Source: Pontiellaceae bacterium (GTDB lineage Bacteria > Verrucomicrobiota > Kiritimatiellia > Kiritimatiellales > Tichowtungiaceae). Taken from it: a stretch of DNA of 64,000 nucleotides. The notes under the pieces were generated by a model. It was not told the origin of the DNA. It saw only the letters and a program-made list of their open reading frames with translations, and did not search any database. The position numbers and the translations under genes were made by a program. Location: positions 27,745 to 91,744 of the forward strand of contig JBGAJP010000003.1 in NCBI GenBank assembly GCA_044224855.1, given 5' to 3'. Below, piece by piece: positions 46,202 through 63,046 of the stretch; the first letter of the stretch is position 1; each line of letters opens with the position of its first letter.

Positions 46202-47395
46202 ATGGGAAAATGGATGCTGGGCTTGATGGTTGCAGCGATAGCTGCCGGCGGATATGGCAACGACTGGCCGGTTTGGCGAGGTCCAGATAATAACGGAATT
46301 TCAAAAGAGACCGGCTGGGATCCCAGGAGTGCCAAAAAACTCTGGACGAAGGAACTGGGCGACGGCTACTCATCGGTCAGCGTCAAAGACGGCCGGCTTT
46401 ACACGACCGGGTTTTCATCCGGCGCTGACAAGGCGGGCAAAGACACGGTTTATTGTCTCGATGCAAAAACCGGAAAAGAAATCTGGAGCCACTCGTATCC
46501 CAGTCAGTCCGGATCGTACAAGGGTCCGCGCGCCACGCCGGTTTGTGACGGCGACGTGGTTTATATGTTCAGCCGCGAAGGTCTGCTGATCTGTCTCGAC
46601 GCCGCTTCCGGCAAAGTGAAGTGGGAAACGGATGTACTCACCGGAACCGGCAACCAGAACATTAAATGGGGGCTGTCCTCCTCTCCGGTTGTTGAAGGCG
46701 ACCTGATTCTGCTTAACGTTGGTTCCACCGGAACGGCCGTTGACAAAAACAGCGGCAAAATCAAATGGAAGAGCGCCGGAACCTCCGGTTACGCCTCGCC
46801 GGTAGTCTTTGATTTCAAAGGCAAACGCTGCGCCGCGATCTTTTCAGCGCCCGGTCTTCAGGTGGTCGATGTCAAAACCGGCGGTAAGATCAGCTCCTTT
46901 AACTGGGAAACCAAATACGACGTCAACAGCGCCGACCCGCTGGTTATCGGCGATCGGATCTTCATCTCTTCCGGTTACGCCCGCGGCTGCGGCATGCTCG
47001 ATTTTTCCTCCGGCGAACTGAAACCGGTGTGGGAAAACAGCCTGATCAAAGCGCATTTCGGCAGCAGTGTCTGTATCGACGGGTTCATCTACGGTGTCGA
47101 CGGACAGGCTAAAGGAAAAGGCCCGCTGCGCTGTGTTTCCGCCGCTGACGGTTCCGAGCAGTGGAACGCGCCGGTCAACTTCGGCTCGCTGATGGCCGCC
47201 GACGGCAAGCTGATTGTACTCGGCGAAGACGGAACACTTATCTTCGCGGATGTCTCTGCCGAAAAATATACCGAGATTTCCAGAATGGACACCGGAATCG
47301 GCCCGCTCTGCTGGACCGCGCCGGTATTGGCGAACGGCATCATCTACTGCCGCAATGACAAGGGAACGCTCGTCGCGATCGATGTCAGCAAATAA
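46202..47395 (+). CDS. PQQ-like beta-propeller repeat protein, paralog P1 (secreted)
   Basis: AGGAGG RBS and a signal peptide. N-terminal motif NDWPVWRGPDNNG, followed by repeated blade-like units such as VKDGRLY, GDVVYMF and CLDAKTGKEIW. Confidence 0.8.
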   Translation: MGKWMLGLMVAAIAAGGYGNDWPVWRGPDNNGISKETGWDPRSAKKLWTKELGDGYSSVSVKDGRLYTTGFSSGADKAGKDTVYCLDAKTGKEIWSHSYPSQSGSYKGPRATPVCDGDVVYMFSREGLLICLDAASGKVKWETDVLTGTGNQNIKWGLSSSPVVEGDLILLNVGSTGTAVDKNSGKIKWKSAGTSGYASPVVFDFKGKRCAAIFSAPGLQVVDVKTGGKISSFNWETKYDVNSADPLVIGDRIFISSGYARGCGMLDFSSGELKPVWENSLIKAHFGSSVCIDGFIYGVDGQAKGKGPLRCVSAADGSEQWNAPVNFGSLMAADGKLIVLGEDGTLIFADVSAEKYTEISRMDTGIGPLCWTAPVLANGIIYCRNDKGTLVAIDVSK

Positions 47396-48077
47396 GACAC
47401 TCCTGATCTGCCGCTGCGCCGGGCGCCGCCTGCTTAAACAGGAGGCGCTCGAACCGCTTTTGCGGCAGGACGGGGCGGTTACGGTTCCCGATCTCTGTCA
47501 GGCCGCCGCTGCAAAAGACCCGGTTCTTGGGCAAATCGCCGGCGCGGAATTTCCGGTCGTTTGCGCCTGCCATCCGCGCGCGGTTCGCGCGCTCTTTGCG
47601 TTTGCCGGGTTTCCGCTTCCGCAAAACACGGAATTTATAAACCTTCGCATTTCATCCGGCGGTTCATCCGTTCAATCGGATGCCGCCTGGTATCCGGTCA
47701 TAGACGAAAACCGCTGCACGAACTGCGGGCAGTGTTTCGAGTTCTGCCTTTTCGGTGTCTATGAAAAGAATTCCGCCGGGAAAGTCCGCGTGGTGAATCC
47801 GCACAGCTGCAAAAACAACTGTCCGGCCTGTGCCCGGATCTGTCCCGCCGCCGCCATTATTTTCCCCAAAGTCGGCGAAGCGCCGATCAACGGCGCAGAA
47901 ATTTCCGACGAGGAAGCCCTTAAGGCGAACATCAAAATCAACGTCGACGAAATTCTTGGCGGCGATGTTTACGCCGCGCTGAATGCCCGCAAACAGAAGC
48001 GCCGCTCGCTGCTCGATCAAAAGAAAATCGAGCAGGCGCTGGCGGAGCGGAAGAAATGTTCGGAGGGCAGCGTATGA
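47382..48077 (+). CDS. 4Fe-4S dicluster ferredoxin-domain protein with a Cys-rich N-terminal domain
   Basis: CTNCGQCFEFC and CKNNCPACARICP. The start at MSANKT overlaps the end of P1 by 14 nt. Confidence 0.7.
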   Translation: MSANKTLLICRCAGRRLLKQEALEPLLRQDGAVTVPDLCQAAAAKDPVLGQIAGAEFPVVCACHPRAVRALFAFAGFPLPQNTEFINLRISSGGSSVQSDAAWYPVIDENRCTNCGQCFEFCLFGVYEKNSAGKVRVVNPHSCKNNCPACARICPAAAIIFPKVGEAPINGAEISDEEALKANIKINVDEILGGDVYAALNARKQKRRSLLDQKKIEQALAERKKCSEGSV

Positions 48078-49267
48078 GCGCCACGTTGATGAAACGGATG
48101 CTGACCGAGCCGGACAAGCGACTGCTGTGGAAGTTCGCCTATAACTTCGGCTTTAAAGGAATGCGCTCCATCGAAAAATTCCAGAAGCGCCTCAAGCGCG
48201 GCGAATATTTCCCGGCCTTTTTATTTCTGTCGGTCACCAACGCCTGCAATCTTGCCTGTCAGGGATGCTGGGTGTCACAAACCAATCCGCCCAAACAGAT
48301 CGCGCCCGGAACGCTTGATAACGTCATCACCGAATGTAAGGCGCAGGGTTCCTGTTTCTTCGGTATCCTCGGCGGCGAACCGCTGCTCTATGACGGCCTC
48401 TTCAAGGTTTTCGAAAAACATCCCGACTGCTATTTCCTGCTCTTCACCAATGGCACGATGATCACAGACGCGGTCGCGAAAGAGATGCGGCGTATCGGCA
48501 ACATCAGTCCGCTCATCAGCATCGAAGGGCTTGAGGAAGTCAGCGACGTGCGCCGCGGCGGAAACAAGGTGTATGAACAGACGCTGGCGGGACTGGCTAA
48601 CTGCCGCGCGAACCGTCTGGTTACCGGTGTCTGCACCAGCGTCTGCAAATCCAACATCGACGACCTGGCTACCGAAAAGTTCGTGAACGATGCCGCCGCG
48701 TTCGGCGCGCACTATCTCTGGTATTACATCTACCGCCCGGTCGGACCGAATCCGTCGCCGGAACTCGCGCTTGACGCGGAACAGATCACCCGCCTGCGCC
48801 GCTTCATCGTCGATATCCGCCTCACAGCGCCGCTGGTGGTGGTTGACGCCTACTGGGACGATAAAGGCCGGGCGCTCTGCCCGGCGGCAGTCGGCATCGC
48901 CAATCACGTCAGTCCTGACGGTTATATCGAACCGTGCCCGCCGCTTCAGTTCGCCAAGGACAACATCGGCGACGGAACCGGGCTCTACGACCTTTTCAAC
49001 CATTCCGAATTTCTCGCTGACTTCCGCCGGATGTGCTGCAAAACCACGCAGGGCTGCATCATCATGGAACATCCCGATCAGCTCGCGGACTTTATCAAAC
49101 GCGAAGATGCGGTCGACAGCTCCGGGCGCGGCACGCTGCTGGCCGAGCTTGGCCGGACGTGTCCTTGCGGCAGCCACCATCAGCCCGGCGAAGAAATTCC
49201 GGAGCGCAGTTGGGCCTACCGTTTTGCGAAGAAAAACTGGTTTTTCGGTTTCGGAGCGTACGGGTGA
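48074..49267 (+). CDS. Radical SAM protein, subfamily not recognised
   Basis: SVTNACNLACQGCW (CX3CX2C) and GGEPLL. C-terminal Cys-rich region. ATGA overlap with the ferredoxin gene. Confidence 0.8.
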   Translation: MSATLMKRMLTEPDKRLLWKFAYNFGFKGMRSIEKFQKRLKRGEYFPAFLFLSVTNACNLACQGCWVSQTNPPKQIAPGTLDNVITECKAQGSCFFGILGGEPLLYDGLFKVFEKHPDCYFLLFTNGTMITDAVAKEMRRIGNISPLISIEGLEEVSDVRRGGNKVYEQTLAGLANCRANRLVTGVCTSVCKSNIDDLATEKFVNDAAAFGAHYLWYYIYRPVGPNPSPELALDAEQITRLRRFIVDIRLTAPLVVVDAYWDDKGRALCPAAVGIANHVSPDGYIEPCPPLQFAKDNIGDGTGLYDLFNHSEFLADFRRMCCKTTQGCIIMEHPDQLADFIKREDAVDSSGRGTLLAELGRTCPCGSHHQPGEEIPERSWAYRFAKKNWFFGFGAYG

Positions 49268-50790
49268 TGAAACAGACGGCGGCAAAATACGGAGTTCCGA
49301 CGGAACGGTTCGAACGCGAGCAGCTCATGCTCGCAGTTTCCCGGTATGCCGCGGAACATCAGCTGGTGCCGCCGCTCTCGATAGAAGAACTGCGCGATCA
49401 CGCCGGAAATATTGCGGCCGATCCGGGCCTGATCGACTATGTGATGGTGCTGCTCAACAACGAAGTCTGGCGCGAAACAGTCGCTTCCATTCCGTACGAA
49501 CGCCGCCTGCTTCTTCTTCCGCAATGCCTGCGCGACATTCAAGCCTGTCCGGCCAAACTCGATGAGTTCGGCCTGCTCTGCGAAGAGTGCGGACGGTGCA
49601 ATATCGGCGGACTTCAGGCTCTCGCCGAAGAACTGGGTTACGTCGTACTGATCGCCGAAGGCTCAACGGTCGTTTCCAGACTGCTGGAAGGCGGCAAGGT
49701 CGATGCGGTCATCGGCGTCAGCTGCCTCGCCGCGCTGGAAAAATCTTTTTCGCGCATGGCGGATGGTGCCATTCCCGGTCTCGCGATTCCGCTGACCGTT
49801 GATGGCTGCGCCGGAACTGAAATAGACGTCGAGCATGTCCGCGATGCGATCAAACTGAAATCTTCCGCACCGTGGAAAAACACGCTCGATACCGCCCGTC
49901 TGCACGAAGTCGTCGACGGATGGTTTTCCGCCGTCGGCGATTGGAATACGGAAACCCGTACCGGCCAGATCGCCTGCGAGTGGCTGCTCAAAGACGGCAA
50001 GCGCTGGCGTCCGTATCTGCTGGCTTGCACCTACAGCGCGCTCAACGGCGGCACAACGGAACTGCCCGACGAAGTCCGCCGCCTCGCCATTGCCGTCGAA
50101 TGTTTTCACAAAGCTTCGCTTATTCACGATGACATCGAAGACGGCGACGACCTGCGTTACGGCGAGCCTGCGCTTCACCGTCAATACGGACTTGCCGTTG
50201 CCATCAACGCCGGCGACCTGCTGGTCGGCGAAGGCTACCGCTGGATCGCTTCCGTCGAAACCCGTACCGCCGAACTGCTGCGTATTGCCGCAGAAAATCA
50301 CCGTACTCTCTGCCTCGGGCAGGGCGAGGAACTCTACGGTCTTGCGAACGGAACAGCGTTTACCGCGAAAGAGATCATTGAAATTTTCCGGCGCAAAACC
50401 GCGCCGGCTTTCGGCGCGGCGCTTCTGCTCGGCGCCGTCGCTGCCGGAGCGGACCGCGCGCTGCTCGAAACGCTCCAGTCTTTCAGCGAATCGCTTGGTA
50501 TCGCCTACCAGATCCGCGACGATCTCGAAGAATACAAATCCGGCGAAGCACGCGACCTGCGTGCTTCGCTGCTGCTCGCGCTGGCCAATGACCATTCGCC
50601 GGCGCTCCGGCTGACCGCTGAAACCGCGCAGTTGAGCCACCTCTTTGATGAACTGATGATTCCAGAAAAAGCGGCGCAGCTGCTGGAGCACTATAAAAAC
50701 GAAGCGGTCCGCGCACTGAACCCGCTGAAAAACGCGTTGCTCAAAAGTCTGCTCCGGCGGGTTGCCGCTAAAATGCTGGGCGGAGGATGA
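49267..50790 (+). CDS. Fusion of a DUF116-like Cys-rich domain and a trans-polyprenyl diphosphate synthase
   Basis: The N-terminal half has LPQCLRDIQACP...LLCEECGRCNIGG. The C-terminal half has GKRWRP, FARM LIHDDIEDGDDLR, KTAPAF, and a variant second Asp-rich motif IRDDLEE. Confidence 0.75.
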   Translation: MKQTAAKYGVPTERFEREQLMLAVSRYAAEHQLVPPLSIEELRDHAGNIAADPGLIDYVMVLLNNEVWRETVASIPYERRLLLLPQCLRDIQACPAKLDEFGLLCEECGRCNIGGLQALAEELGYVVLIAEGSTVVSRLLEGGKVDAVIGVSCLAALEKSFSRMADGAIPGLAIPLTVDGCAGTEIDVEHVRDAIKLKSSAPWKNTLDTARLHEVVDGWFSAVGDWNTETRTGQIACEWLLKDGKRWRPYLLACTYSALNGGTTELPDEVRRLAIAVECFHKASLIHDDIEDGDDLRYGEPALHRQYGLAVAINAGDLLVGEGYRWIASVETRTAELLRIAAENHRTLCLGQGEELYGLANGTAFTAKEIIEIFRRKTAPAFGAALLLGAVAAGADRALLETLQSFSESLGIAYQIRDDLEEYKSGEARDLRASLLLALANDHSPALRLTAETAQLSHLFDELMIPEKAAQLLEHYKNEAVRALNPLKNALLKSLLRRVAAKMLGGG

Positions 50791-50794
50791 CGCC

Positions 50795-51574
50795 ATGGAA
50801 TCTCTGGCCGACCGCCTGATTCACGCCGCCGCCTGCTCCCGCCGGTTTCTGGAACAGGAATCGCGCAGTCAAATCGCCCGCTTCATTCTCAGCCGGCAGA
50901 ATTCTGACGGCGGGTTTCGAGGAAAAAGCGCGGAGAGCGATCTCTACTATACGGTTTTTGCTGCGGCCGGGCTGAAGGCGCTCGGCTGGCGTATTCCGGC
51001 ATGGTCGCTTTGGAAATACATCAGGCAGTTCGGTTCGGGCGAAGAGCTCGATCTGGTTCATCTGTTCTGTCTGATCCGCTTGCGCGCAGCTTTTCCGATG
51101 ACGGGTAAAACGAGGCGTCAGCTTTTCCGGAACATGGAAGAACTGCCTGCGGACTCAGCTTATGATTTTTTCCTGAAACAGCTGTCCGGGGATTGCCTGG
51201 GAATCGCCCGTCTGCCGGTTGCGCCGCGACCCGTTTCGCTTACGGATCCGACGCCGAATCTCGCGGCGGCGATCGTCGTCAACCGGACCGAGGGGAAAGT
51301 CGCCGCCGGGGTATTGCTCAATCGGATTTGCAGTTCCGGCGGCTTTGCCGCAACGGATCAGCTGAATTCCGCCGACCTGCTGTCCACCGCTACGGCGCTG
51401 TTTGCGCTGAGGATTCTCCATGCGGATCTCGATCCGGTCCGCCGCCCGTGTATGGAATTTATCGAATCGCTCTGGCGCGACAGCGGCGGCTTCGCCGGAC
51501 ATGTAACGGACGAATTCGAAGACGTCGAATACACCTTCTACGCGCTGCTCAGTATCGGATGTTTAATGGAATGA
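50795..51574 (+). CDS. Prenyltransferase/squalene-oxidase repeat protein (protein-prenyltransferase beta-subunit-like alpha-alpha toroid)
   Basis: Repeated QNSDGGFRG, SSGGFAA and DSGGFAG motifs across 259 aa. Confidence 0.7.
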   Translation: MESLADRLIHAAACSRRFLEQESRSQIARFILSRQNSDGGFRGKSAESDLYYTVFAAAGLKALGWRIPAWSLWKYIRQFGSGEELDLVHLFCLIRLRAAFPMTGKTRRQLFRNMEELPADSAYDFFLKQLSGDCLGIARLPVAPRPVSLTDPTPNLAAAIVVNRTEGKVAAGVLLNRICSSGGFAATDQLNSADLLSTATALFALRILHADLDPVRRPCMEFIESLWRDSGGFAGHVTDEFEDVEYTFYALLSIGCLME

Positions 51575-51648
51575 TTTGCCGGATCCACGCCGGGTACGGC
51601 TGAGTTCCGGCAGTACTGGTAAAGCCGGACCTGAAAGTTCCGGCTTAT
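51573..51648 (+). repeat. REP-family element copy 3 (left flank of the RAYT gene)
   Basis: gatttgccggatccacgccgggtacggctgagttccggcagtact (45 nt identical to 52332-52376), then the hairpin aagccggacctgaaagttccggctt. Confidence 0.85.
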
Positions 51649-51714
51649 GGGTTGGAATGGTAAAGCCTGAGCTTAGCGCGAAGCGCGTAGCCCCGGCTTC
51701 AAATGGAGAGAAGG

Positions 51715-52329
51715 ATGGAAAATACAGTGAAGTTCTTCCGGCGGAACCTGCCTCACTGGCTGGTGTCAGACCGGTCATACTTCGTTACCATCCGTTTGCA
51801 TGGAACACTTCCGCAAACCGTTGTGCGGACTTTTCAGGAGGAGCGGGATCGTCTGGATGCTTCCTCGCCCGAGCTTATGGATTTACAGCGCAGACAGTTT
51901 TTGCAGTTGGAGAAAATGCTGGATGCGTGCGAAGCGGGGAGTGCTTGGCTGGCGAATCCTGATATTGCCGCCATGGTTTTGGAAAACCTGGATTGGCTTC
52001 GCGCGGAACGCGGATGGCGGATTTATGCCGGAGTCGTGATGCCAACGCATCTGCATTTACTGATGCGCAGTGAGGACGAACGATCCGGCGATCTCCTGAA
52101 TGATCTGGCTCATTTTAAACGCTTTTCAGCGAGCAAAGCGAATCAGATGCTGGGACGAACCGGGCCGTTCTGGGCGAGGGAACATTTTGATCATTGGATT
52201 CGAAACCGGGGAAAATTCGAAGGAACGGTTCGGTATATTCTAAACAATCCGGTGAAGGCCGGATTGGCGGCAGACTGGCGGGAATGGCCGTGGTATTGTC
52301 TGGATGACTCAATTCGGGAACTGGTTTGA
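51715..52329 (+). mobile_element. REP-associated tyrosine transposase (RAYT, IS200/Y1-type HUH)
   Basis: FFRRNLPHW, HUH motif PTHLHLLM, and C-terminal catalytic-Tyr context VRYILNNPVKAGL. Flanked by REP copies. An alternative ATG lies at 51703. Confidence 0.85.
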
Positions 52330-52331
52330 AA

Positions 52332-52409
52332 GATTTGCCGGATCCACGCCGGGTACGGCTGAGTTCCGGCAGTACTTTAGTAAAGCCGGAACTTTTAGGT
52401 CCGGCTTAT
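52332..52409 (+). repeat. REP-family element copy 4 (right flank of the RAYT gene)
   Basis: Same 45-mer, then the hairpin aagccggaacttttaggtccggctt. Confidence 0.85.
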
Positions 52410-52411
52410 GA

Positions 52412-54064
52412 ATGGTGAAAATGGGTATCGAGAAAGAACAGATTAAAACTGCGCTGGCTTCTTCGCGGAAGACGCTACTGGCCGGGCTGACGCCGGAAGG
52501 CCGGTGGGAAGGCGAGCTGTCGAGTTCCGCGCTGGCGACAGCGGTGGCTTCGTTTGCGCTGAAGACCTCTGGGAAAACAGATCTGGCGGAACGCGGGTTC
52601 CAATGGCTGAAAACTCATCGCAACGCTGACGGCGGCTGGGGCGACAGTCCGGAGAGTCCGAGCAACTTTACAACGACACTGCTTTGCCGCTGTGTGCTGG
52701 ACGAAGAGGTCGGTACGCCGGAAGAAGTTGTCCGAGCGATTCTCGAACATTATGGTGATGACCGCACTTTCTCCGTTCCGATCCTGACGATGTGCATGCT
52801 TGCGGGAAAGCTGGGCGACGACTGGTCGGTTGTTCCGCAGCTTCCGTTCGAGCTGGCGATATTTCCGCACCGTTTCTACAAATTTCTCAGGCTTCCAGTA
52901 GTCAGCTATGCGTTGCCCGCGCTGATTGCGATCGGCCTGGTGCGGCATGTCAGCCGTCCGGCCCGGCTTTCCTTTGTCCGGCAGCGGATCATTCCGCGTG
53001 CGCTGAATATTCTGCAGAAGATCCAGCCCGAAAGCGGCGGCTACCTCGAAGCCGCGCCGCTGACCGGTTTCGTGGCGATGAGTCTGATGGCGGCGGGATA
53101 CGGCGATCATCCGGCGGCGCAGTCGTGTTTCCGGTTTCTGGAAAACACGGTGCGCGCAGACGGCAGCTGGCCGATCGACGTTAACCTCTCCTCGTGGGTG
53201 ACGTCGCTGGCGGTCCGCGCGCTGGACGACCGTCTTTCCGATGAACAGAAGGAGCGCATCCGGTCATATCTGCTGGAGAATCAGTGGAAAGAGGAGCATC
53301 CGTTCACTCATGCCGCGCCCGGCGGCTGGGGCTGGACGTATGAAAAGGGCGGAGTTCCCGACGCCGACGATACGGCCGCCGCGCTGATCGCGCTTCACCA
53401 TTTGGAGTGCGATACGGAGACGGCTGAAAAGGGAATCCACTGGCTGTTGGATTTGCAGAACCGCGACGGCGGGATGCCGACGTTCTGCAAGGGCTGGGGA
53501 AAGCTGCCGTTCGACCGCAGCTGTCCGGATCTGACGGCGCACATGATCCGCGCATTTATGGCATGGCGCGGAGCTGTCGGTTCCGGACTTGCTGTAAAAA
53601 TGAAACACTCGATCCTCCGGGGGTTGCGTTATCTAAAGAAACAGCAGCGCGCCGACGGTTCGTGGCTTCCGCTCTGGTTCGGCAGTCAGGCCGATCCGAA
53701 GCATGAAAATCCGGTTTACGGAACGGTGCGTGTGCTGGAAGCGCTGCGCGAACTGGATGAGAACGAGTTTCCGGTTTCCGGGGAAATGAAACGGCGCGGG
53801 TTTCAATGGCTGGAGACTGCGCAGAATCCGGACGGCAGCTGGGGAAGTTCGGTCGAGGAGATGGCGCTGGCGGCGGGGCTGACGGGGAAAGGGTTTGAGC
53901 GGTTGCTGGAAATGACGGAGAGCGGAACGAAATTTCCGGCGGCACCGATCGGATTGTATTTTGCGAGCCTGTGGTATTCGGAGAAAATGTACCCGCTGAT
54001 CTTTACGGTCGAGGCGCTTCAAAGATACACTCCGGAATTTGAACAGGAAGGCGGCAGAAAATGA
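52412..54064 (+). CDS. Squalene-hopene-cyclase-family class II terpene cyclase (short, 550 aa)
   Basis: PGGWGWTYEKGGVPDADDTAAAL contains the DxDDTA motif. QW-like repeats RNADGGWG, QNRDGGMP, QRADGSW and QNPDGSWG. The order of C-terminal segments parallels A. acidocaldarius SHC as I recall it. Confidence 0.8.
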   Translation: MVKMGIEKEQIKTALASSRKTLLAGLTPEGRWEGELSSSALATAVASFALKTSGKTDLAERGFQWLKTHRNADGGWGDSPESPSNFTTTLLCRCVLDEEVGTPEEVVRAILEHYGDDRTFSVPILTMCMLAGKLGDDWSVVPQLPFELAIFPHRFYKFLRLPVVSYALPALIAIGLVRHVSRPARLSFVRQRIIPRALNILQKIQPESGGYLEAAPLTGFVAMSLMAAGYGDHPAAQSCFRFLENTVRADGSWPIDVNLSSWVTSLAVRALDDRLSDEQKERIRSYLLENQWKEEHPFTHAAPGGWGWTYEKGGVPDADDTAAALIALHHLECDTETAEKGIHWLLDLQNRDGGMPTFCKGWGKLPFDRSCPDLTAHMIRAFMAWRGAVGSGLAVKMKHSILRGLRYLKKQQRADGSWLPLWFGSQADPKHENPVYGTVRVLEALRELDENEFPVSGEMKRRGFQWLETAQNPDGSWGSSVEEMALAAGLTGKGFERLLEMTESGTKFPAAPIGLYFASLWYSEKMYPLIFTVEALQRYTPEFEQEGGRK

Positions 54065-55436: not shown

Positions 55437-55484
55437 AAAAATGTACCCCTTGATCTTTACGGTCGAGGCGCTTCAAAGATACAC
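55437..55484 (+). repeat. Copy of the last ~48 nt of the cyclase gene (53984-54031), placed upstream of paralog P3
   Basis: aaaatgtacccNNtgatctttacggtcgaggcgcttcaaagatacact matches at 46 of 48 positions. It contains the stem atcttt/aaagat. Confidence 0.85.
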
Positions 55485-55535
55485 TGCGCGTACTCAGAGT
55501 TATCCATAAGGATTTAAACAGAAAGGCCGCAGAAA

Positions 55536-56864: not shown

Positions 56865-56878
56865 ATTTTGCTGAATGC

Positions 56879-58324
56879 ATGCGTCGCATGAAACAGAAAA
56901 CAGCCAGTCTGCTGACAGCGGTACCCGTTCTTGTTCTATGCGGGGGTCTCGCCGCTTTTCTGCTCGCGCGCTGGTTTGCGTATGATCCGGCGCGCGGGCT
57001 GGCGCGCAGCCTGCCCGGTATGGACGGCAGTCCTGCCGGATCGAAACAGGCGGGCGCGAGCGACTTGAAGGTTGATCTGGCCGGAACGCTTGAAAAGTTC
57101 GACGGCGTACCGTCCAGTCTGCCCGGCTCGTGGCCGCGCTTTCGCGGTCCGGATTTTGATAACATCTATAAAGCCGGTGTGAAGCTGGCGGACAGCTGGC
57201 CGGAGTCCGGCCCGGAAATTCTCTGGTCGGTTGCGCTGGGCGAAGGCCACGCCGCGCCCGCCGTTTTCAACGGCTGCGTCTATCTGTTCGACTACGACGA
57301 GCAGAAGCGTTCTGACGCGCTGCGCTGTTTTTCGCTGGCCGACGGCAAAGAAATCTGGCGGCACTCCTACATACTGCCCGCCAAGCGGAACCATGGACTT
57401 TCACGAACCATTCCGGCGGTCACCGAAGACTGCATCGTGACGATCGGTCCGCGCTGCCACGTTTCATGTGTCGAAACCGCGACCGGCAAATTCCGCTGGG
57501 GGATTGATCTGCAAAAGGAGTATGGCACTACGGAACCGCTGTGGTTTACCGGACAATGTCCGCTGATCGATGAAGGCCGCGCGATTCTTGCGCCCGGCGG
57601 GCCCGACGTCCTGCTGATGGCAGTTGACTGCAAAACCGGCGCTGTCATTTGGAAGACGCCGAATCCGGGCGGCTGGAAAATGTCGCACTCATCCGTTATG
57701 CCGCTGACGCTTCACGGCGAAGCCATGTATGTTTACGCCGCGGTCGGCGGCATGGCCGGCATTTCCAAAGACGGAAAACTCCTGTGGCAGATTCCCTGGA
57801 GCGCCTCGGTGATCGCTCCGTCACCGGTTCCGGTTTCCGGAAACCGGATTTTCATCACCGCCGGTTACGGCGCGGGCAGTCTGATGGTACAGATCGACAA
57901 GACTGCTGACGGCTTTACCGCAAAAGAAGTTGCGCGCACCGGCCCGCAGGACTGGCTGGCGAGCGAACAGCAGACGCCGGTTCTGCACGACGGCCTGCTT
58001 TATGGAATCATGCCGAAAGACGGCGGTGCGCTGAAACAGCAGTTCGTCTGCTACGATCCGGCCGGCGGACTGGTCTGGTCGAGCGGCAAAACGAGTCGCT
58101 TCGGACTCGGCCCGTTCCTGCTGGCCGACGGAAAGTTTTTTATATTGGACGACGACGGCACATTAACCATGCTGGCCGTTAGCCGGGACGGATATAAACA
58201 GCTCGCGCAGCACAAGGTGCTGGACGGACACGATGCCTGGGGGCCGATCGCCATCGCCGGAACCCGAATGCTCCTGCGCGATTCGACCCGGATGGTCTGT
58301 ATTGAAACCGGAGTTAAAAAATGA
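56879..58324 (+). CDS. PQQ-like beta-propeller repeat protein, paralog P4 (N-terminal TM anchor)
   Basis: TM helix LLTAVPVLVLCGGLAAFLLA and motif GSWPRFRGPDFDN. Confidence 0.8.
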   Translation: MRRMKQKTASLLTAVPVLVLCGGLAAFLLARWFAYDPARGLARSLPGMDGSPAGSKQAGASDLKVDLAGTLEKFDGVPSSLPGSWPRFRGPDFDNIYKAGVKLADSWPESGPEILWSVALGEGHAAPAVFNGCVYLFDYDEQKRSDALRCFSLADGKEIWRHSYILPAKRNHGLSRTIPAVTEDCIVTIGPRCHVSCVETATGKFRWGIDLQKEYGTTEPLWFTGQCPLIDEGRAILAPGGPDVLLMAVDCKTGAVIWKTPNPGGWKMSHSSVMPLTLHGEAMYVYAAVGGMAGISKDGKLLWQIPWSASVIAPSPVPVSGNRIFITAGYGAGSLMVQIDKTADGFTAKEVARTGPQDWLASEQQTPVLHDGLLYGIMPKDGGALKQQFVCYDPAGGLVWSSGKTSRFGLGPFLLADGKFFILDDDGTLTMLAVSRDGYKQLAQHKVLDGHDAWGPIAIAGTRMLLRDSTRMVCIETGVKK

Positions 58325-59271
58325 GCAGTGCAAAGCAAAGCTGGATCTGGTTTGCCGTGCTTTTGCTGCTGATTGCCGGCTCCGGAATTTATTTGGGAAC
58401 GAGCCGCCGCGCAGAGCTTGGCAAAAGTTTTGCCTACTCCGTCGATGACTACCGGCAGGTTGACCCCGCGCTTCTGCGTTACGCCGAGACAGGCAGCCTC
58501 CGTCCGGCGATTAAAAAACTTTCCGCGTTGGCTATTGCACCGGACGGGAAAATTTACGTCGCCGGCGAAAATGCCATCGAAATTCTTCCGGACAGAACCA
58601 TTCTCCCGGTTGCCGGAACGCCGGCCTGTATTGCGGTGGATGACGACGGTACGGTATTTGCCGGCCTGCAAAATCACGTCGAAGTTTTTTCCAAAGACGG
58701 AAAAAGCACGACGTGGCCGTCGCCCGGCGACAAGGCTTACCTGACTTCCATCGCGGTTGATGACCGGTATGTTTATGTGGCTGACGCAGGCAGCCGCCGC
58801 GTCTGGCGGTACGGCAAGGCGGGTGGCGCGCCGTTTGAAATCGGTGCAAAAGATGAGGCGAACGGCGTGCGCGGTTTCTATATTCCCAGTCCGTTCTTTG
58901 ATCTGGCTGTCGGAACCGACGGCTCGCTGTGGGTGGTTAATCCCGGTTATCACGCGCTGGAAAATTACAGCGTGGACGGACGGCTTATTTCATCTTGGCA
59001 GAACAGTTCATTCGGCATTCAGGGATTCAGCGGATGCTGCAACCCGGCGAATTTTGCGCTGATGCCCGACGGTTCATTCGTTACCGCTGAAAAAGGACTG
59101 CCGCGTATCAAGATTCACAATCTGGACGGTTCGCTGCGGTGCGTCGTCGCGGCACCGGATCAGTTTGAAAAAGGCGCGGCCGGACTCGACGTGGCGGCGG
59201 ACCGGCAGGGCCGCGTCTATGTGCTCGACCCGGTTCGTGACGCTGTCCGGATTTTTGAGGAGAAAAAATGA
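58321..59271 (+). CDS. NHL-repeat six-bladed beta-propeller protein (N-terminal TM anchor)
   Basis: ATGA overlap with P4. TM helix WIWFAVLLLLIAGSGIYL. NHL-like units YVYVADAGSRRVWRY, GSLWVVNPGYHALENY and GRVYVLDPVRDAVRIF. Confidence 0.7.
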   Translation: MSSAKQSWIWFAVLLLLIAGSGIYLGTSRRAELGKSFAYSVDDYRQVDPALLRYAETGSLRPAIKKLSALAIAPDGKIYVAGENAIEILPDRTILPVAGTPACIAVDDDGTVFAGLQNHVEVFSKDGKSTTWPSPGDKAYLTSIAVDDRYVYVADAGSRRVWRYGKAGGAPFEIGAKDEANGVRGFYIPSPFFDLAVGTDGSLWVVNPGYHALENYSVDGRLISSWQNSSFGIQGFSGCCNPANFALMPDGSFVTAEKGLPRIKIHNLDGSLRCVVAAPDQFEKGAAGLDVAADRQGRVYVLDPVRDAVRIFEEKK

Positions 59272-59897
59272 AAACGGCCGGAAGACGGGATTTTATTAAA
59301 AACCTCGCACGAGGCGCAGTGCTGGCCTGTATCGCCGGAGTCTGCGGCATACTGATTTCGCGGAAAAATAAATATCAATGCAACGGGCGCTGCGGTACGT
59401 GCAAACCTGCCAACGGCGGGGCGTGCCCGATGGGATCATCCGGATTCGTCTGGCAGATTGACCCGGAGAAATGCACCCAGTGCGGACGCTGCGCCACGCA
59501 TTGCGTACTGGCGCCGTCGGCGGTGAAGTGCTTTCACTCCTATTCCATCTGCGGCTATTGCGATCTATGCGGCGGCTATCTGCGTCCCGATGCTAAAGAG
59601 CGCAATACCGGAGCGGAAAACCAGCTCTGTCCGACGGCGGCTATTCGCCGGAAATTCATTGAGGATCCTTATTACCAGTACACCATTGACGAAAAGCTCT
59701 GCATCGGTTGCGGCAAATGCGTGAAGGGCTGCGGTATGTTCGGCAACGGTTCGCTTTATCTTCAGGTCAAACATGACCTTTGCGTTAATTGCAACGAATG
59801 CGCCATCGCCCGCGCCTGTCCGTCCGGTGCCTTCCGGCGTGTGCCTGCCTCCGATCCCTATCTGCTGAAATCCAACAAGGAACGGAGAATCAGCTGA
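59268..59897 (+). CDS. NapG-like Tat-signal poly-ferredoxin (periplasmic 4Fe-4S protein)
   Basis: Twin-arginine motif GRRDFIKNLARGAVLA. Cluster motifs CTQCGRCATHC, CGYCDLCGG, CIGCGKCVKGC and CVNCNECAIARAC. Confidence 0.7.
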   Translation: MKTAGRRDFIKNLARGAVLACIAGVCGILISRKNKYQCNGRCGTCKPANGGACPMGSSGFVWQIDPEKCTQCGRCATHCVLAPSAVKCFHSYSICGYCDLCGGYLRPDAKERNTGAENQLCPTAAIRRKFIEDPYYQYTIDEKLCIGCGKCVKGCGMFGNGSLYLQVKHDLCVNCNECAIARACPSGAFRRVPASDPYLLKSNKERRIS

Positions 59898-61270
59898 TGC
59901 AGAAATCAGTTCAAACCGCAAAGACGCAAAGACGCCAAGCCCACGGGACTGCCTTCCTTCGCTTCTTCGCGCCTTTGCGGTCGATCATCCCGATGTTTTG
60001 TTTAGCAGGTTCTGCGCAGGCGGAATTCCGCTTTCCGATGCCGGAGTTCGCTTCGGGCTATAAATACCCGGCGGTCTATACGCCAGAGCCGTCGAACCTG
60101 ATGGCGGGCTGGGACATCGTGGTACTGATCGCCGCGCTGACGCTGGCGGCAATCTTTGTGTTAAAGCGCCGCAGGCGCCGCGAAATATTTCTGCTCACGC
60201 TTTTTTCACTGATCTATTTCGGCTTCTGGCGCAACGGCTGCGTCTGTTCGGTCGGCTCGGTGCAGAACGTCGCGACGGGTTTGTTTAATCCTGCCTTTGG
60301 CGTTCCGCTGACGGTGCTGGTTTTTTTTGCCGTACCGCTGATCTTTGCTTTACTGTTCGGCCGCGTTTTCTGTGCGGCGGTCTGTCCGCTGGGTGCGATT
60401 CAGGAATCCGTCGCGATCAAACCGGTCAAAGTTCCGCTGGCGGTCGAGAAGGTGCTATCGATTGTTCCGGTTATCTATCTCGGACTGGCGATGCTTTCCG
60501 TGGCGATGGGCGCGGGCTTCCTCATCTGCCGGTACGATCCGTTCGTTGGATTCTTCCGCATGGGTGCCAGCTTCAGTCTGCTGATTTTCGGCGGCCTCAT
60601 GCTGGTGCTCGGTATTTTTGTGGCGCGGCCTTACTGCCGTTTTCTCTGTCCTTACGGCGTACTGCTCAACTGGGCGTCGAAACTTTCGCGCCGTCACGCC
60701 ACCATTACACCGTCAGAGTGTATCCAGTGCGGACTTTGCGCTGATTCGTGTCCCTACAACGCCATCAACGAACCGGCGCCCGAAGCGGCGCCGGAAAGCC
60801 GCCGCAAGGGCGCACGGCGGCTCGGCCTGCTGATTCTGCTGCTTCCGGTTCTCATTGCGCTCGGCATTGGAACCGGCAGCCTGCTGCGCGAACCGCTTTC
60901 GCGGTTGCATCCAACCGTCCGGCTGGCCGAACGCATCGCCGGCGAAGAGCTGGGGAGGTACACGGATAATACAATCGAGTCCGCAGCCTTTCGCGCATCG
61001 GATACTCCCAACGAAAAACTTTATACGGAAGCCGTGGCGCTTAAAGGCCGGTTCGGACGCGGTGGAAAATGGTTCGGCGCGTTTATCGGTCTGATGATCG
61101 GCTGCAAGCTGATCGGCGTTTCCGTCCGCCGGAAACGTGCGGGTTATGAACCGGACCGCGGCACCTGCTACAGCTGCGGCCGCTGTTTTAAATTTTGCCC
61201 GGTGAAGGCCTCGTGCCGCGAAAAACTTGCCGGGCCCACGCCGGATACGACTGAGTTCCGGCAGTACTGA
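59897..61270 (+). CDS. NapH/NosH-like integral-membrane polyferredoxin (putative quinol dehydrogenase subunit)
   Basis: Membrane CX3CP motifs FCAAVCPLG and YCRFLCPYG, plus CIQCGLCADSCP and CYSCGRCFKFCP. The 5-prime 90 nt and the last 13 codons are built from repeat elements, so both the true start and the true end are uncertain. Confidence 0.7.
   Translation: MQKSVQTAKTQRRQAHGTAFLRFFAPLRSIIPMFCLAGSAQAEFRFPMPEFASGYKYPAVYTPEPSNLMAGWDIVVLIAALTLAAIFVLKRRRRREIFLLTLFSLIYFGFWRNGCVCSVGSVQNVATGLFNPAFGVPLTVLVFFAVPLIFALLFGRVFCAAVCPLGAIQESVAIKPVKVPLAVEKVLSIVPVIYLGLAMLSVAMGAGFLICRYDPFVGFFRMGASFSLLIFGGLMLVLGIFVARPYCRFLCPYGVLLNWASKLSRRHATITPSECIQCGLCADSCPYNAINEPAPEAAPESRRKGARRLGLLILLLPVLIALGIGTGSLLREPLSRLHPTVRLAERIAGEELGRYTDNTIESAAFRASDTPNEKLYTEAVALKGRFGRGGKWFGAFIGLMIGCKLIGVSVRRKRAGYEPDRGTCYSCGRCFKFCPVKASCREKLAGPTPDTTEFRQY
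59914..59981. repeat. Empty inverted-repeat hairpin of the KDAK-type family that flanks the GxxExxY gene
   Basis: aaccgcaaagacgcaaagacgccaag ... cttccttcgcttcttcgcgcctttgcggt. The arms are reverse complements at about 21 of 25 positions and resemble 63052-63079. Confidence 0.7.
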
Positions 61271-61320
61271 AGTAAAGCCGGAACTTAGGGTGTATTCGCC
61301 CGTAGATCCGGCCTATAAGG
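61226..61320 (+). repeat. REP-family element copy 5 (long variant), overlapping the 3-prime end of the NapH-like ORF
   Basis: cttgccgggcccacgccggatacgactgagttccggcagtactgaagtaaagccggaacttaggg...cgtagatccggcc. Confidence 0.7.
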
Positions 61321-61327
61321 GTGGTGT

Positions 61328-63046
61328 ATGGAAGAGAAATCAGAATTTAAACAGCGGCCGGTGCTGAGTCTGCTGGCGCAGAGCGTCGCGATGGCGGCGG
61401 CTGTGTTCTCGCTGATCCTCTGCATCCTGCTGATCGCCGACTTCGTGCGGATTCAGAAAATGGATCCGCTGAACGATCCGCATCTACTTCAGCTGCGCGA
61501 AAAGCTGGCCGATTCGACGGACGGCCGCGAAGCGCTGGCGGAACAGATCCGCACGTTCGATCTTTATGCACGTCGCGCCTTTTTCAGCAATCAGGAGCAG
61601 CGGCACATGGGCGGCCTGCTTCTGTTGGGCGGTGCAGCGGTCTGTTTTGCTGCGCTGAAACTTTCCAGGCTTTGGAAGCCGGAACTTCCGAAGGTCGGTA
61701 AACCGGAACCGGTGGATCATTGGGAACTCAACGCGCTGTTCCGGCAGTTGATGGCCATGAGCGGTATTCTGCTGGCTGCCGTTGCGCTGTTCCTGGCTTT
61801 CGCGGTGAAAAGTGATTTGTCCGTTGTACTTGAGCAGTCGAAGCAACAACCCGTAGCGCCTGCCGCGCAAGTGACACAAACAGCTCAGCCTATGCAATTC
61901 ATGGGCGCGGCGAAAACCAATTGGCCGTCACTGCGCGGACCGGGCGGAACCGGCGTAGCGCATTTCACGAACGCGCCGACCGGTTGGGATGTTAAAACCG
62001 GCGAAGGCATCCTGTGGAAAACAGAAATTCCTGTCCCCGGATTCAACTCGCCGATTGTCTGGGGCGGCCGGATTTTCATGTCGGGTGCCGATGATGAAGG
62101 GCAGGAGATTTTCTGCTTCGATGCGGATACAGGTAAACAGCTCTGGACGAAGGCGGTGAAGACCGCGGTCAAACTTCCTGAAGTGTCGAAAGATACAGGC
62201 TATGCCGCGCCGACGATGACAACCGATGGCCGGCGTGTGTTTGCCATCTTCGCGACCGGCGAGCTGGCCGCGTTCGGTTTCGACGGCAACCCCGTCTGGC
62301 AGAAAAATCTGGGCGTGCCGGAAAATCCGTACGGCATGGGCTCGTCGCTCATTACCGATGGCGAACGGCTGTTTGTGCAATACGACCATCAGGATGCGCA
62401 AAAAATAATGGCCTTTGACTGCGCCACCGGCAATCCGGTCTGGCAAACTGCGCGCGCGCATATTTCCTGGTCGAGCCCGGCGCTGATCGAAACCGCTTCC
62501 GGCCCGCAGCTGATTCTCAACGACGAAGAAAATGTGACGGCCTATGACCCGGTTTCCGGAAAACAGATCTGGCAGGTCAAATGTCTCGGCGGCGAAGTCG
62601 CACCGTCACCCGCTTTCAACGGCAGGGACATTGTTTTCGTGGCGAACGAATATGCGCAGGCCAGCGCGCTGAAGCTGAGCGGCGGCACGCCGGAAATCCT
62701 GTGGCAGTATGAAAAATTGCTGCCGGAGATCAGCAGCCCCGTCGCGGCGGAAAACTTTTTTTTCATCGCCACCTCGGCGGGGGATGTAGTCTGTCTTGAT
62801 GCCGCGACAGGCAAAGAGAAGTGGAAGCAGGAGTTCGACGAAGGATTCACTTCATCGCCGGTACTCGTCGGCGACCGTATTTACGCCATCGACCTCACCG
62901 GCGTCATGCACATTTTCGCCGCCGCCGGAGAATATAAGGAGATCGGAACGGTCGAAACGGGCGAGCCGGTTTACGCCACACCTGCTTTCATGAACGGACG
63001 GATTTATATTCGCGGCGATAACAACCTCTACTGCGTCGGAAGATGA
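61328..63046 (+). CDS. PQQ-like beta-propeller repeat protein, paralog P5 (three N-terminal TM helices)
   Basis: About 190 aa of membrane domain, then TNWPSLRGPGGTG and propeller repeats. Confidence 0.8.
   Translation: MEEKSEFKQRPVLSLLAQSVAMAAAVFSLILCILLIADFVRIQKMDPLNDPHLLQLREKLADSTDGREALAEQIRTFDLYARRAFFSNQEQRHMGGLLLLGGAAVCFAALKLSRLWKPELPKVGKPEPVDHWELNALFRQLMAMSGILLAAVALFLAFAVKSDLSVVLEQSKQQPVAPAAQVTQTAQPMQFMGAAKTNWPSLRGPGGTGVAHFTNAPTGWDVKTGEGILWKTEIPVPGFNSPIVWGGRIFMSGADDEGQEIFCFDADTGKQLWTKAVKTAVKLPEVSKDTGYAAPTMTTDGRRVFAIFATGELAAFGFDGNPVWQKNLGVPENPYGMGSSLITDGERLFVQYDHQDAQKIMAFDCATGNPVWQTARAHISWSSPALIETASGPQLILNDEENVTAYDPVSGKQIWQVKCLGGEVAPSPAFNGRDIVFVANEYAQASALKLSGGTPEILWQYEKLLPEISSPVAAENFFFIATSAGDVVCLDAATGKEKWKQEFDEGFTSSPVLVGDRIYAIDLTGVMHIFAAAGEYKEIGTVETGEPVYATPAFMNGRIYIRGDNNLYCVGR

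Follow-up and report, generated by a model that had tools for sequence, protein, structure and literature searches.

A stretch of DNA of 64,000 nucleotides from a Pontiellaceae bacterium (GenBank assembly GCA_044224855.1, contig JBGAJP010000003.1, positions 27,745 to 91,744 of the forward strand), here termed the window, carries from position 46202 to its end a long string of genes. These encode five β-propellers of the pyrroloquinoline quinone (PQQ)-like type (P1 to P5), an NHL propeller, a ferredoxin/membrane protein pair that resembles NapG/NapH and a group of isoprenoid enzymes. Every substantial gene in this part is on the + strand, and neighbours are closely packed or overlap. Comparison with related loci indicates that the genes very probably belong to one system, of which the propellers are an integral part. 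The best overall explanation, to which a probability of about 0.5 can be given, is a conserved supercluster of ~25–30 kb that encodes an extracytosolic electron-transfer machine. The closest relatives of the window proteins are those of Pontiellaceae (Kiritimatiellota), and databases annotate such relatives as '4Fe-4S binding protein', 'PQQ-binding-like beta-propeller repeat protein', 'NHL repeat-containing protein' or 'hypothetical'.

The redox genes and their conserved order

The string opens with P1 (46202–47395), a secreted propeller of the eight-bladed PQQ_2 type (Pfam PQQ_2, E = 2e-36), which is followed by the isoprenoid genes described below. Further on lie two secreted PQQ_2 propellers, P2 (54061–55386) and its paralogue P3 (55536–56864), then the membrane-anchored PQQ_2 propeller P4 (56879–58324; the open reading frame (ORF) extends from 56846, with the likely ATG at 56879 or 56888) and NHL, a membrane-anchored six-bladed propeller of 316 aa (58321–59271), all recognized by Pfam. 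A 209 aa iron–sulphur protein (59268–59897; Pfam Fer4 families) and a NapH-like seven-helix membrane polyferredoxin (59897–61270) come next, and P5 (61328–63046; PQQ_2, E = 7e-33) is a propeller set behind an N-terminal membrane domain of ~190 aa. A gene for a GxxExxY/PDDEXK_3 nuclease fold (63087–63473) separates P5 from the 5′ part of a gene for a NuoE–NuoF–ferredoxin fusion, BfuC-BfuB-like by homology to an orthologue in another locus (63517–64000), which runs off the window. Overlapping pairs in the window are a cyclase gene and P2 (ATGA), P4 and NHL, NHL and the ferredoxin gene, and the ferredoxin and NapH-like genes. Overlaps are also frequent in loci fetched from other genomes, which bear L numbers here: the NapH-like, P5 and NuoEF genes overlap one another in L001, as do the last two in L003 and L006.

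An orthologue pattern for the NapH-like protein was scanned across GTDB, with one genome per species. At least 507 species-level relatives were found (507 of the 600 pattern matches listed encode relatives), and the best 80 loci were annotated against the window proteins. Partners were counted only at loci of NapH-like orthologues that have enough flanking sequence. A ferredoxin with a twin-arginine translocation (Tat) signal adjoins the NapH-like gene in 73/73 loci and NuoEF is present in 59/59. P5 lies downstream of the NapH-like gene in 71/72, NHL is found in 66/67, P4 in 59/62 and a gene for a GltD-like protein in 49/54. The order is fixed: zero to five propellers of the P1/P2/P3 type, P4, NHL, a small Cys protein, the Tat-ferredoxin, the NapH-like protein, P5, the NuoE–NuoF fusion and the GltD-like protein. 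This redox set is termed module B.

Carriers come mostly from anoxic habitats. Lineages represented among the best 80 loci are the Kiritimatiellales, Victivallales/Lentisphaerales, Limisphaerales, Nitrospirales, Hydrogenedentota, several orders of Planctomycetota, Bacteroidota (Prolixibacteraceae, Rikenellaceae, Lentimicrobiaceae), Calditrichota, KSB1, Latescibacterota, Aminicenantia and Holophagae. A first-pass annotation, made from the window sequence alone, had wired the propellers to the NapGH-like pair and had allowed that the pair might belong to a separate respiratory locus. The co-occurrence is borne out by the counts above, and a separate locus is rejected by the fixed order with the propellers in about a dozen lineages. 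Judged by this synteny, the pair works with the propellers and does not belong to a neighbouring respiratory locus.

Clustering of all unassigned ORFs in the flanks brought out no further recurrent family (no cytochromes, ApbE or molybdoenzymes), apart from the GxxExxY/PDDEXK_3 gene, which is confined to some Kiritimatiellales. The first-pass annotation had passed over a further redox partner, the NuoEF protein whose gene starts at 63517.

Some side observations on the locus can be added. The GxxExxY/PDDEXK_3 gene occupies the same position in L007, L014, L024, L067 and Pontiella desulfatans, and is therefore a stable operon resident in some lineages. In P. desulfatans a Y1_Tnp gene (L167, 13427–13879) lies between the NapH-like gene and P5. 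Complete copies of the cluster are present on contigs labelled 'Candidatus Bathyarchaeia archaeon' (L029, DATKVG010000122.1) and 'Eubacteriales' (L034, CAZIDF010000047.1). These are probably the result of mis-binning; if real, they would represent horizontal transfer to an archaeon or a monoderm.

The propellers and the WPxxxGP motif

All five propellers are assigned to PQQ_2 by Pfam (E = 1e-18 to 2e-36). They had been reported to share the motif WPxxxGP close to the N-terminus, and in a MAFFT alignment of the five paralogues, where P2–P5 are 23–28% identical to P1, the W, P, G and P are indeed invariant columns. Of 1,551 unrelated ORFs from the fetched loci that are 150 aa or longer, only 5 have the strict pattern, so that sharing of the motif is not due to chance. 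P1–P3 have predicted signal peptides, as had been suggested, and the motif starts 1–2 residues past the predicted cleavage site; in P1 the signal peptide is followed directly by DWPVWRGP. In the structural model of P4 the motif lies ~25 residues ahead of the strand that precedes blade 1. A charged insert common to P2 and P3 was also found as described: it is rich in Pro, Lys, Arg and Glu, is ~28 residues long, has the same position in both (alignment columns 421–449) and is absent from P1, P4 and P5.

The motif extends well beyond this cluster, and in this respect the first-pass annotation has to be revised. A HMMER scan with P1 gave 29,898 clusters at 50% identity, 2,298 of them at E ≤1e-30. 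Among the 150 best 50%-identity representatives, which are diverse relatives, 88 have the strict motif, with the consensus DWPxWRGPxxxG[IV]S, and it is found also at internal propeller starts of multi-domain proteins. Within the orthologue groups of the cluster itself, the strict motif is present in 58/83 P5 proteins, 17/66 P4 proteins and 0/39 members of a sixth propeller type that is encoded in related loci. By these sequence comparisons, WPxxxGP marks the N-terminal end of a very large PQQ_2 subfamily, probably for structural reasons, and is not cluster-specific. An N-terminal W-x-x-[WY]-x-G presumably resembles the signature that precedes the closing strand in quinoproteins.

Curated models place the propellers outside the characterized families. 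Those tested score 32–47 bits (maximum 46.6) with the PQQ-dehydrogenase models TIGR03075 and TIGR03074, for which the cut-offs are 480 and 833, and 30–112 bits with the BamB models TIGR03300 and NF008351 (cut-offs 285 and 423). Unlike BamB, a lipoprotein, P4 and P5 have transmembrane anchors and P1–P3 have non-lipoprotein signal peptides. Propellers of the P1–P3 type number from 0 to 5 copies per locus and appear to be variable accessories. Only P4, P5 and NHL are constant, and these are therefore candidates for core roles. In P5 polar invariants are fewer; its N-terminal membrane domain is conserved, and R75, D78 and R82 within that domain are invariant.

The ferredoxin and the NapH-like membrane protein

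In most relatives two genes are found between NHL and the NapH-like gene, one for a small 4-Cys protein and one for a ferredoxin of ~186 aa that has its own RRDF signal. The small protein is 54–67 aa in length and consists of an RRxF motif, a hydrophobic helix and Cx4-8CxxCx5-8C; a crude scan recovers it in 53/68 loci. The 209 aa protein of the window is an in-frame fusion of the two, with the small protein at residues ~1–57 and the ferredoxin at ~58–209, and the Tat signal of the ferredoxin has been lost. The fusion is shared by the closest relatives, L007, L008, L087 and L088; the sister Kiritimatiellales loci L012, L014 and L024 have two genes. Natural fusion within a subclade is evidence of the Rosetta-stone type, and suggests that the small protein and the ferredoxin cooperate on one and the same face of the membrane. 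The small protein was also considered as a precursor of the ribosomally synthesized and modified peptide type (PqqA-like) for the radical S-adenosylmethionine (SAM) enzyme of the isoprenoid module. This idea was dropped: the small protein is kept in loci that have no radical SAM gene nearby, and it has a Tat-type RR and a membrane helix.

The ferredoxin has 17 Cys residues conserved in four groups among 82 orthologues, enough for four [4Fe-4S] clusters. The earlier description of a twin-arginine ferredoxin with four Cys clusters thus agrees with the RRxF motif and the 17 Cys, and needs amending in that the protein is a natural fusion of two, of which the second has lost its Tat signal. A search of solved structures (query L005, 9333–9890) gave a single near-full-length match, and a weak one, to the four-cluster polyferredoxin subunit 9mqx_E (E = 2e-5). 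The chain 9mqx_E was deposited as 'Fe-S-cluster-containing hydrogenase subunit', and NuoF- and NuoG-like chains of the same entry also match the NuoEF and GltD-like queries. There may be a hint here of a ferredoxin able to oligomerize or to extend a cluster chain.

The NapH-like protein is 54–59% identical across phyla and has more than 130 invariant columns. Pfam finds Fer4_5 twice and Fer4 once. The CX3CP motifs noticed before are two in number and invariant among orthologues (C159/C163-P164 and C247/C251-P252, at helix ends), and there are two CxxCxxCxxxCP motifs (C275/278/281/285 and C424/427/430/434). All orthologues have an AxA signal-peptidase site followed by an invariant EFRFPMPEF, and the mature N-terminus should therefore be periplasmic. 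Seven hydrophobic segments alternate with loops rich in Lys and Arg. The topology predicted from these features would place both CX3CP and both CxxCxxCxxxCP motifs in the cytoplasm, and an invariant GCxC motif, a further invariant Cys (CRYDPF) and a conserved 60 aa segment in the periplasm. For the membrane domain, no solved relative turned up when the PDB was searched by sequence. In L005 (Pontiellaceae B12227) an extra membrane protein of 325 aa with a faint Peptidase_M50 match is encoded between the NapH-like gene and P5 (11193–12170); it was seen in this single locus.

The pair had been equated with the NapG/NapH and NosG/NosH architecture. The arrangement of motifs is that of these proteins: a twin-arginine signal and four Cys groups in one partner, two CX3CP together with CxxCxxCxxxCP motifs in the other. 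Curated cut-offs are far from being reached, with 20.8 bits against a cut-off of 269 for the NapG equivalog model (NF007012), 37 and 28.5 bits against 213 and 234 for the NapH/MauN models (TIGR02163; NF007013), and 44 bits against 1000 for NosR (NF046105), where only model positions 411–645 are matched and no Pfam FMN_bind domain is found. Thus, by sequence the pair resembles these families without belonging to them.

An Nfn-like module downstream

The start of the NuoE/NuoF-like protein at 63517 is 81% identical over 160 aa to the orthologue in L005. The full-length NuoEF orthologue has a NuoE-like N-terminal domain, and its residues 173–779 align with residues 3–593 of NfnB (9n5u_B; E = 9e-215). 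Other solved relatives are 9bov_B, StnB (8oh5_B, from Stn) and HydB of bifurcating hydrogenases. Full-length homology thus extends to BfuB, which is NuoF-like with a C-terminal 2×[4Fe-4S] region, and to the NuoE-like BfuC. The GltD-like protein has a nucleotide-binding domain and an N-terminal Fe-S region that matches NfnA/StnA (NfnA residues 10–267 and a second stretch); its length is 473–525 aa vs 963 aa for NfnA, or about half.

NfnABC is a Bfu enzyme and, according to the literature on it, oxidizes NADPH and reduces NAD+ and ferredoxin. In the accessible text of a Bfu survey (PMC9304861), 17 BfuB clades are left without an assignment and the only membrane partners described are of the Mbh and Nuo types; that text makes no mention of propellers, PQQ, NapH, polyferredoxins or the periplasm. 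Since a Bfu-type module is linked in every scorable locus, cytoplasmic NAD(P)H would seem a likelier donor than quinol. The quinol-dehydrogenase input of the first-pass annotation is not favoured by the presence of NuoEF and GltD-like genes in 59/59 and 49/54 loci.

P4 and NHL as the candidate acceptor side

P4 is the most conserved of the propellers, with 62–64% identity between Kiritimatiellales and Nitrospirae/Hydrogenedentes. Its alignment has 100+ invariant columns, among them KRNHGxSRTxP, GQCP, MSHSS, EQQTP, RFGxGP and DAWGP, each directly ahead of an inner strand. An AlphaFold2 model (predicted local distance difference test, pLDDT, 86) has an N-terminal helix at residues 2–32, in agreement with the membrane anchor proposed earlier. 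In each of the eight blades invariant polar residues precede the inner strand, i.e. they are in the D-to-A loops. In the numbering of the 479 aa form these are E120/H122, K167-R-N-H-G-x-S-R-T175, E217…Q224-C-P, M266-S-H-S-S, E361-Q-Q-T-P, R405-F-G-x-G-P and D450-A-W-G-P. The D-to-A loops of β-propellers ring the entrance of the central channel.

The model of NHL (pLDDT 87.5) consists of an N-terminal helix (residues 3–35), again the expected anchor, and a six-bladed NHL fold. A loop F-x-G-C-C-N-P directly ahead of an inner strand contains C239-C240, which are invariant in 70/70 orthologues. Also invariant are D155, H211, E214, E257 and K264, with R262 across the 70 orthologues and R159 within Kiritimatiellales. 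The loops that correspond to those of P4 thus hold invariant polar residues in NHL as well. P4 and NHL thus appear to carry a conserved polar set at the predicted entrance of the central channel, as placed by the predicted strands. A lack of any conserved pocket in the propellers, raised in the first-pass annotation as a point that would count against its proposal, does not apply to these two proteins. P4 is a candidate catalytic or ligand-binding subunit on the basis of its conservation and its modelled structure.

A Foldseek search of the PDB with P4 gave BamB (in BAM complexes) and tetrathionate hydrolase as best matches (E ~1e-16, 15–19% identity) and no redox enzyme. With NHL the search gave generic NHL domains alone (TRIM2, PknD, Vgb lyase), and again no redox enzyme. 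A NosZ-like metal site was considered and dropped, as there is no conserved multi-His set; most of the conserved Cys residues in P4 are at the canonical buried position of each blade.

Isoprenoid and export genes

The genes between P1 and P2 had been left aside as unrelated. They encode FdLike2, a 2×[4Fe-4S] ferredoxin-like protein (47382–48077; Pfam Fer4 families, weak HgcB/PorD-like NCBIfam matches), a radical SAM enzyme with a Cys-rich, SPASM-like C-terminal region (48056–49267; Radical_SAM, E = 3e-15) and a fusion of DUF116 with a polyprenyl diphosphate synthase (49267–50790; DUF116, E = 3e-37; polyprenyl_synt, E = 2e-41). Then come PT-like, a small α/α-toroid protein related to prenyltransferases and terpene cyclases (50762–51574; Prenyltrans, E = 8e-12), and a class II terpene cyclase of 550 aa that resembles squalene-hopene cyclase (SHC; 52412–54064; SQHop_cyclase_C, E = 3e-36; SQHop_cyclase_N, E = 6e-16). 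This set, with P1 as its first gene, is termed module A. The P1 stop overlaps the FdLike2 start, and the ATG of the fusion gene overlaps the stop codon of the radical SAM gene. A homologue of transposases associated with repetitive extragenic palindromes (REP-associated tyrosine transposase, RayT/IS200-like; 51703–52329; NCBIfam NF047646, 83.9 bits, cut-off 80) is inserted between the toroid and cyclase genes and splits them; a related ORF is present in L061.

FdLike2 is syntenic with the radical SAM gene in L019, L022, L046, L087 and many metagenome loci, and is probably the partner of that enzyme. The radical SAM protein itself has NCBIfam matches below threshold only (NirJ/AhbC/AhbD, PqqE, HpnH). 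In the polyprenyl synthase, small residues stand ahead of the first DDxxD, a feature that in this family usually accompanies long products. The PT-like gene is always upstream of the SHC-like gene. In the cyclase GGVPDADDT, with its DxDD motif, is invariant in six orthologues, and both SQHop domains are matched, which identifies a class II enzyme; with the SHC equivalog model TIGR01507 it scores 97 bits vs a cut-off of 431.

Module A adjoins module B in the window and in L006, L008, L014, L015, L018, L019, L022, L024, L046 and L087–L091, which include several Kiritimatiellales, a Victivallales genome and an Aminicenantia genome. In L095 and L158 the order is reversed, B then A, with the sequence NuoEF–GltD-like–tandem propeller–module A. 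In P. desulfatans F1, where the locus spans ~1.078–1.099 Mb of CAAHFG010000004.1 and includes PDESU_06116/06117, the two are interleaved, the polyprenyl synthase gene being between P2 and P4. A reverse metagenome scan with the cyclase found module A in at least 470 loci; it is headed by a P1-like propeller in 11 of the 29 loci whose upstream sequence reaches 8 kb or more, and adjoins module B or C genes in at least 11 loci. P1-like propellers head module A in L046, L087, L111, L116, L130 and L167. Adjacency in both orders together with interleaving argues, at the level of gene arrangement, for a functional link between modules A and B, and the genes between P1 and P2 can no longer be set aside. 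In L167 (P. desulfatans) a glyoxalase/bleomycin-resistance gene of the vicinal oxygen chelate (VOC) type (5304–5720) is found between the cyclase gene and P2; it is absent from the window.

A third group, module C, is seen in related loci and consists of a GT4 glycosyltransferase, the sixth propeller, a LolD-like ATPase (260 bits with the LolD model, cut-off 307) and a 1106 aa permease with two FtsX domains and MacB_PCD. It lies within 10 kb, on either side, in 39/56 loci. In Pontiella the GT4 gene, the first of module C, comes after the GltD-like gene, where the fetched locus ends. The rest of module C is probably just beyond the present window.

The region 5′ of the cluster (40306–46093) has genes apparently unrelated to it. 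These are a U32-peptidase/UbiU-TrhP-like gene (– strand), a gene for an extracytoplasmic function sigma factor with a small downstream ORF (41769–42676), an RlmN-like radical SAM methyltransferase gene (43137–44162, – strand; 415 bits vs a cut-off of 441), an ORF of 330 aa without a family (44581–45573, – strand) and an ORF6N-domain gene (45572–46093).

Relation to known systems

The pair shares with NapGH, NosGH and MauMN a Tat-exported multi-[4Fe-4S] ferredoxin and a Fer4_5 protein that has two CX3CP and cytoplasmic [4Fe-4S] motifs, and, as in those systems, it is encoded beside the periplasmic proteins it would serve. NosZ and the heavy subunit of methylamine dehydrogenase are β-propellers as well. 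In contrast to those systems, the NapH-like protein described here is predicted to have a signal peptide that is cleaved off, a conserved N-terminus in the periplasm, seven helices and an additional periplasmic segment of 60 aa, and a helix hairpin near the C-terminus precedes the second of its [4Fe-4S] motifs. The small Tat-type 4-Cys protein and the downstream NuoEF/GltD-like module are additional, and there is no molybdo-, copper or tryptophan tryptophylquinone enzyme.

A survey of flavinylated systems (Méheust et al., 2021; PMC8238504) proposes that NapH-like proteins act as modular conduits across the membrane, to or from NosZ, PceA and the propeller enzymes NirS and ExaA. The NosR/PceC-type systems treated there have in common with module B an Fe-S membrane conduit of the NapH type that leads to periplasmic oxidoreductases. 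They differ in that neither the cluster nor its flanks gave any sign of an FMN-binding domain or an ApbE gene, that the periplasmic relay is a polyferredoxin and not a flavin, and that the propellers are not recognizable as NirS or ExaA.

As to NfnABC, StnABC and HydABC, the NuoF-like part of the fusion protein aligns full-length to NfnB, StnB and HydB, and the GltD-like protein has in common with NfnA and StnA the N-terminal [2Fe-2S]/[4Fe-4S] region and a nucleotide-binding domain. The BfuC and BfuB equivalents are however fused, the BfuA-like protein has about half the length of NfnA, and the module is part of one gene string with membrane and periplasmic proteins.

BamB and tetrathionate hydrolase have the eight-bladed PQQ_2-type fold without PQQ and belong to the same Pfam family as P4. 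Tetrathionate hydrolase is a catalytic PQQ_2 propeller that has no cofactor. P4 differs from both in its N-terminal transmembrane helix and in its invariant channel residues, which match neither protein. PQQ-dependent alcohol and glucose dehydrogenases are of the same propeller superfamily; here, however, the cluster has no PQQ biosynthesis genes and the scores fall below the cut-offs. With the squalene-hopene and sporulene-type (C35) pathways module A shares α/α-toroid SHC domains, DxDD and the pairing with a polyprenyl diphosphate synthase, although the cyclase has only 550 aa and is below the SHC cut-offs. We know of no DUF116 fusion, radical SAM enzyme or dedicated ferredoxin in hopanoid or sporulene synthesis. 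Module C may be related to type VII ATP-binding cassette (ABC) exporters such as DevBCA and LolCDE, to judge from its LolD-like ATPase and from a permease with MacB-type periplasmic and FtsX domains.

Proposed electron pathway and alternatives

A possible pathway can be outlined. A cytoplasmic NfnABC/Stn-like flavoprotein, made up of the NuoE–NuoF–ferredoxin fusion and the GltD-like protein, would oxidize NAD(P)H and pass electrons, which flavin-based bifurcation may have brought to a low potential, to the pair of [4Fe-4S] clusters on the cytoplasmic side of the NapH-like protein. They would cross the membrane by way of the Cys motifs, two CX3CP on the inside and GCxC with one further Cys on the outside, and would be relayed by the Tat-exported 4×[4Fe-4S] ferredoxin and the small Tat-type 4-Cys protein, which are fused in the window. 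The end point would be a membrane-anchored periplasmic complex of P4, NHL and P5, with the reaction site at the central-channel entrance of P4, at the vicinal Cys-Cys of NHL, or at both. NAD(P)H as the specific donor and flow toward the periplasm have an even chance of being correct.

The substrate can be guessed at, with far less assurance. The chemistry might be carried out on, or depend on, a cyclized polyprenyl (glyco)lipid made by module A, which would then be handled by the GT4 enzyme, the Lol/MacB-type ABC exporter and the sixth propeller encoded beside the cluster in most genomes. The boldest form of the proposal is doubtful: a machine free of heme, flavinylation and quinone, in which the Nfn-like flavoprotein is docked on the NapH-like protein and P4/NHL is a new enzyme that has its own cyclic polyprenyl glycolipid. 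The active centre of P4/NHL would in that case be the vicinal Cys-Cys or a site assembled in the periplasm.

Several points weigh against an outward electron-transfer machine of this kind. NapH-family proteins are classically regarded as quinol dehydrogenases, and the NapH-like protein may hold a quinol site. None of the findings fixes the direction of flow. The GltD-like gene is missing beside 5/54 loci, and the Nfn-like pair may be a cytoplasmic transhydrogenase under shared regulation and not a docked donor. The propellers have no recognizable cofactor motif, i.e. no CxxCH and no NosZ-type His cluster, their PQQ-dehydrogenase scores are far below cut-off, and the fold searches gave generic BamB, NHL and tetrathionate hydrolase matches only. 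The N-termini of P4, P5 and NHL are of the Sec type and not the Tat type, so that any terminal redox centre would have to be thiol-based or assembled outside the cytoplasm. Placement of the pocket rests on the position of residues relative to predicted strands, and the pLDDT of the NHL Cys-Cys loop is below 50 at residues 233–235. Module A adjoins in only 6 of 41 NapH-centred loci, and many SHC-like loci have no module B nearby. Bfu enzymes are reversible, according to the literature on them.

This reversibility leaves room for flow in the opposite direction, which is unlikely but fares best among the alternatives. P4 and/or NHL would oxidize a periplasmic donor and electrons would pass inward to the Bfu-type module, which would reduce NAD(P)+, either by confurcation with another donor or with splitting to ferredoxin. 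There is a parallel in the flavinylation survey, in which NapH-like proteins are proposed to collect electrons from periplasmic ExaA in 172 genomes (PMC8238504), and the propellers are within the PQQ-propeller superfamily. However, PQQ-dehydrogenase scores of 32–47 bits are far from cut-offs of at least 480, and inward electrons would oppose the membrane potential and thus need a donor of very low potential. An all-[4Fe-4S] relay suits outward delivery at low potential at least equally, and the neighbouring genes suggest no donor chemistry.

Outward flow from quinol is rather improbable. Here a quinol dehydrogenase of the NapGH/NosGH type would feed the propellers as terminal reductases of an anaerobic respiration. 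The arrangement of a Fer4_5 protein with two CX3CP and a Tat-type four-cluster ferredoxin is that of NapH/NapG and NosH/NosG, and the pair is strictly co-conserved with the propellers. Such a system would have no need of the NuoEF and GltD-like proteins, which are nonetheless encoded in the same overlapping gene string, and the NapG, NapH and NosR scores lie far below their cut-offs. No quinone-binding signature was identified in the proteins. In addition, carrier strains of Pontiella grew only fermentatively, according to the species description (PMC7356697).

It is likewise improbable that the propellers are non-catalytic, BamB-like or LolA/LptA-like scaffolds or carriers in the export and insertion of a cyclic polyprenyl glycolipid or lipoprotein supplied by modules A and C. 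The Fe-S chain would then have a supportive function only, i.e. it would keep a thiol or metal centre reduced or would sense redox state; a supporting redox role has been proposed for NosR and MauM/MauN. BamB in BAM complexes as a top structural match of P4, the variable copy number of P1–P3, the interleaving of terpenoid with propeller genes and the make-up of module C, with its LolD-like ATPase, duplicated FtsX/MacB-type permease, GT4 and further propeller, would all be in keeping with this. P4, however, is conserved across phyla in the manner of an enzyme, with invariant polar residues at the predicted channel entrance. Every locus also invests heavily in redox proteins, with a three-domain flavoprotein in addition to a ferredoxin and a NapH-like protein that together hold at least six [4Fe-4S] sites. 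In 17/56 loci there is no module C within 10 kb; module A is lacking in most.

That the propellers and the pair are unrelated neighbours, brought together by coincidence of motif and clustering or by local tandem duplication, might be argued from the family-generic nature of WPxxxGP and the abundance of PQQ_2 genes in these phyla, but is refuted by the fixed order and overlapping genes found in 59/62 to 73/73 loci of about a dozen lineages.

Significance

Taken singly, the components are of familiar types, and that a NapH-like conduit can serve a periplasmic propeller enzyme is known in principle. A full-text literature search, which included the accessible text of the Bfu survey and of a Hydrogenedentota hydrogenase paper (neither mentions propellers or NapH), found no description of the cluster. 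The combination of a Bfu-type donor, an all-Fe-S periplasmic relay, propellers that appear to have no cofactor and a terpenoid pathway was not met with in that literature, and the gene set probably encodes a redox machine of the cell envelope that is new to the literature. Cultured Pontiella species carry the cluster, and the hypothesis is therefore directly testable.

If the outward electron-transfer machine is real, it would constitute a fourth route for electrons out of the cytoplasm, beside quinol/cytochrome chains, flavinylated systems of the NapH/PepSY/MsrQ type and DsbD. This route would be all iron–sulphur and would be fed directly by an NAD(P)H-oxidizing, possibly bifurcating flavoprotein. 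One of the unassigned Bfu clades would then be assigned. The tie to a terpene cyclase and a radical SAM enzyme points to a new cyclic polyprenoid lipid in anaerobes, which is a possible biomarker. The machine would also give a first functional context to the very large 'PQQ-like / BamB-like' propeller families, which are abundant in genomes of Planctomycetota, Verrucomicrobiota/Kiritimatiellota, Hydrogenedentota, Bacteroidota and further lineages from sediments.

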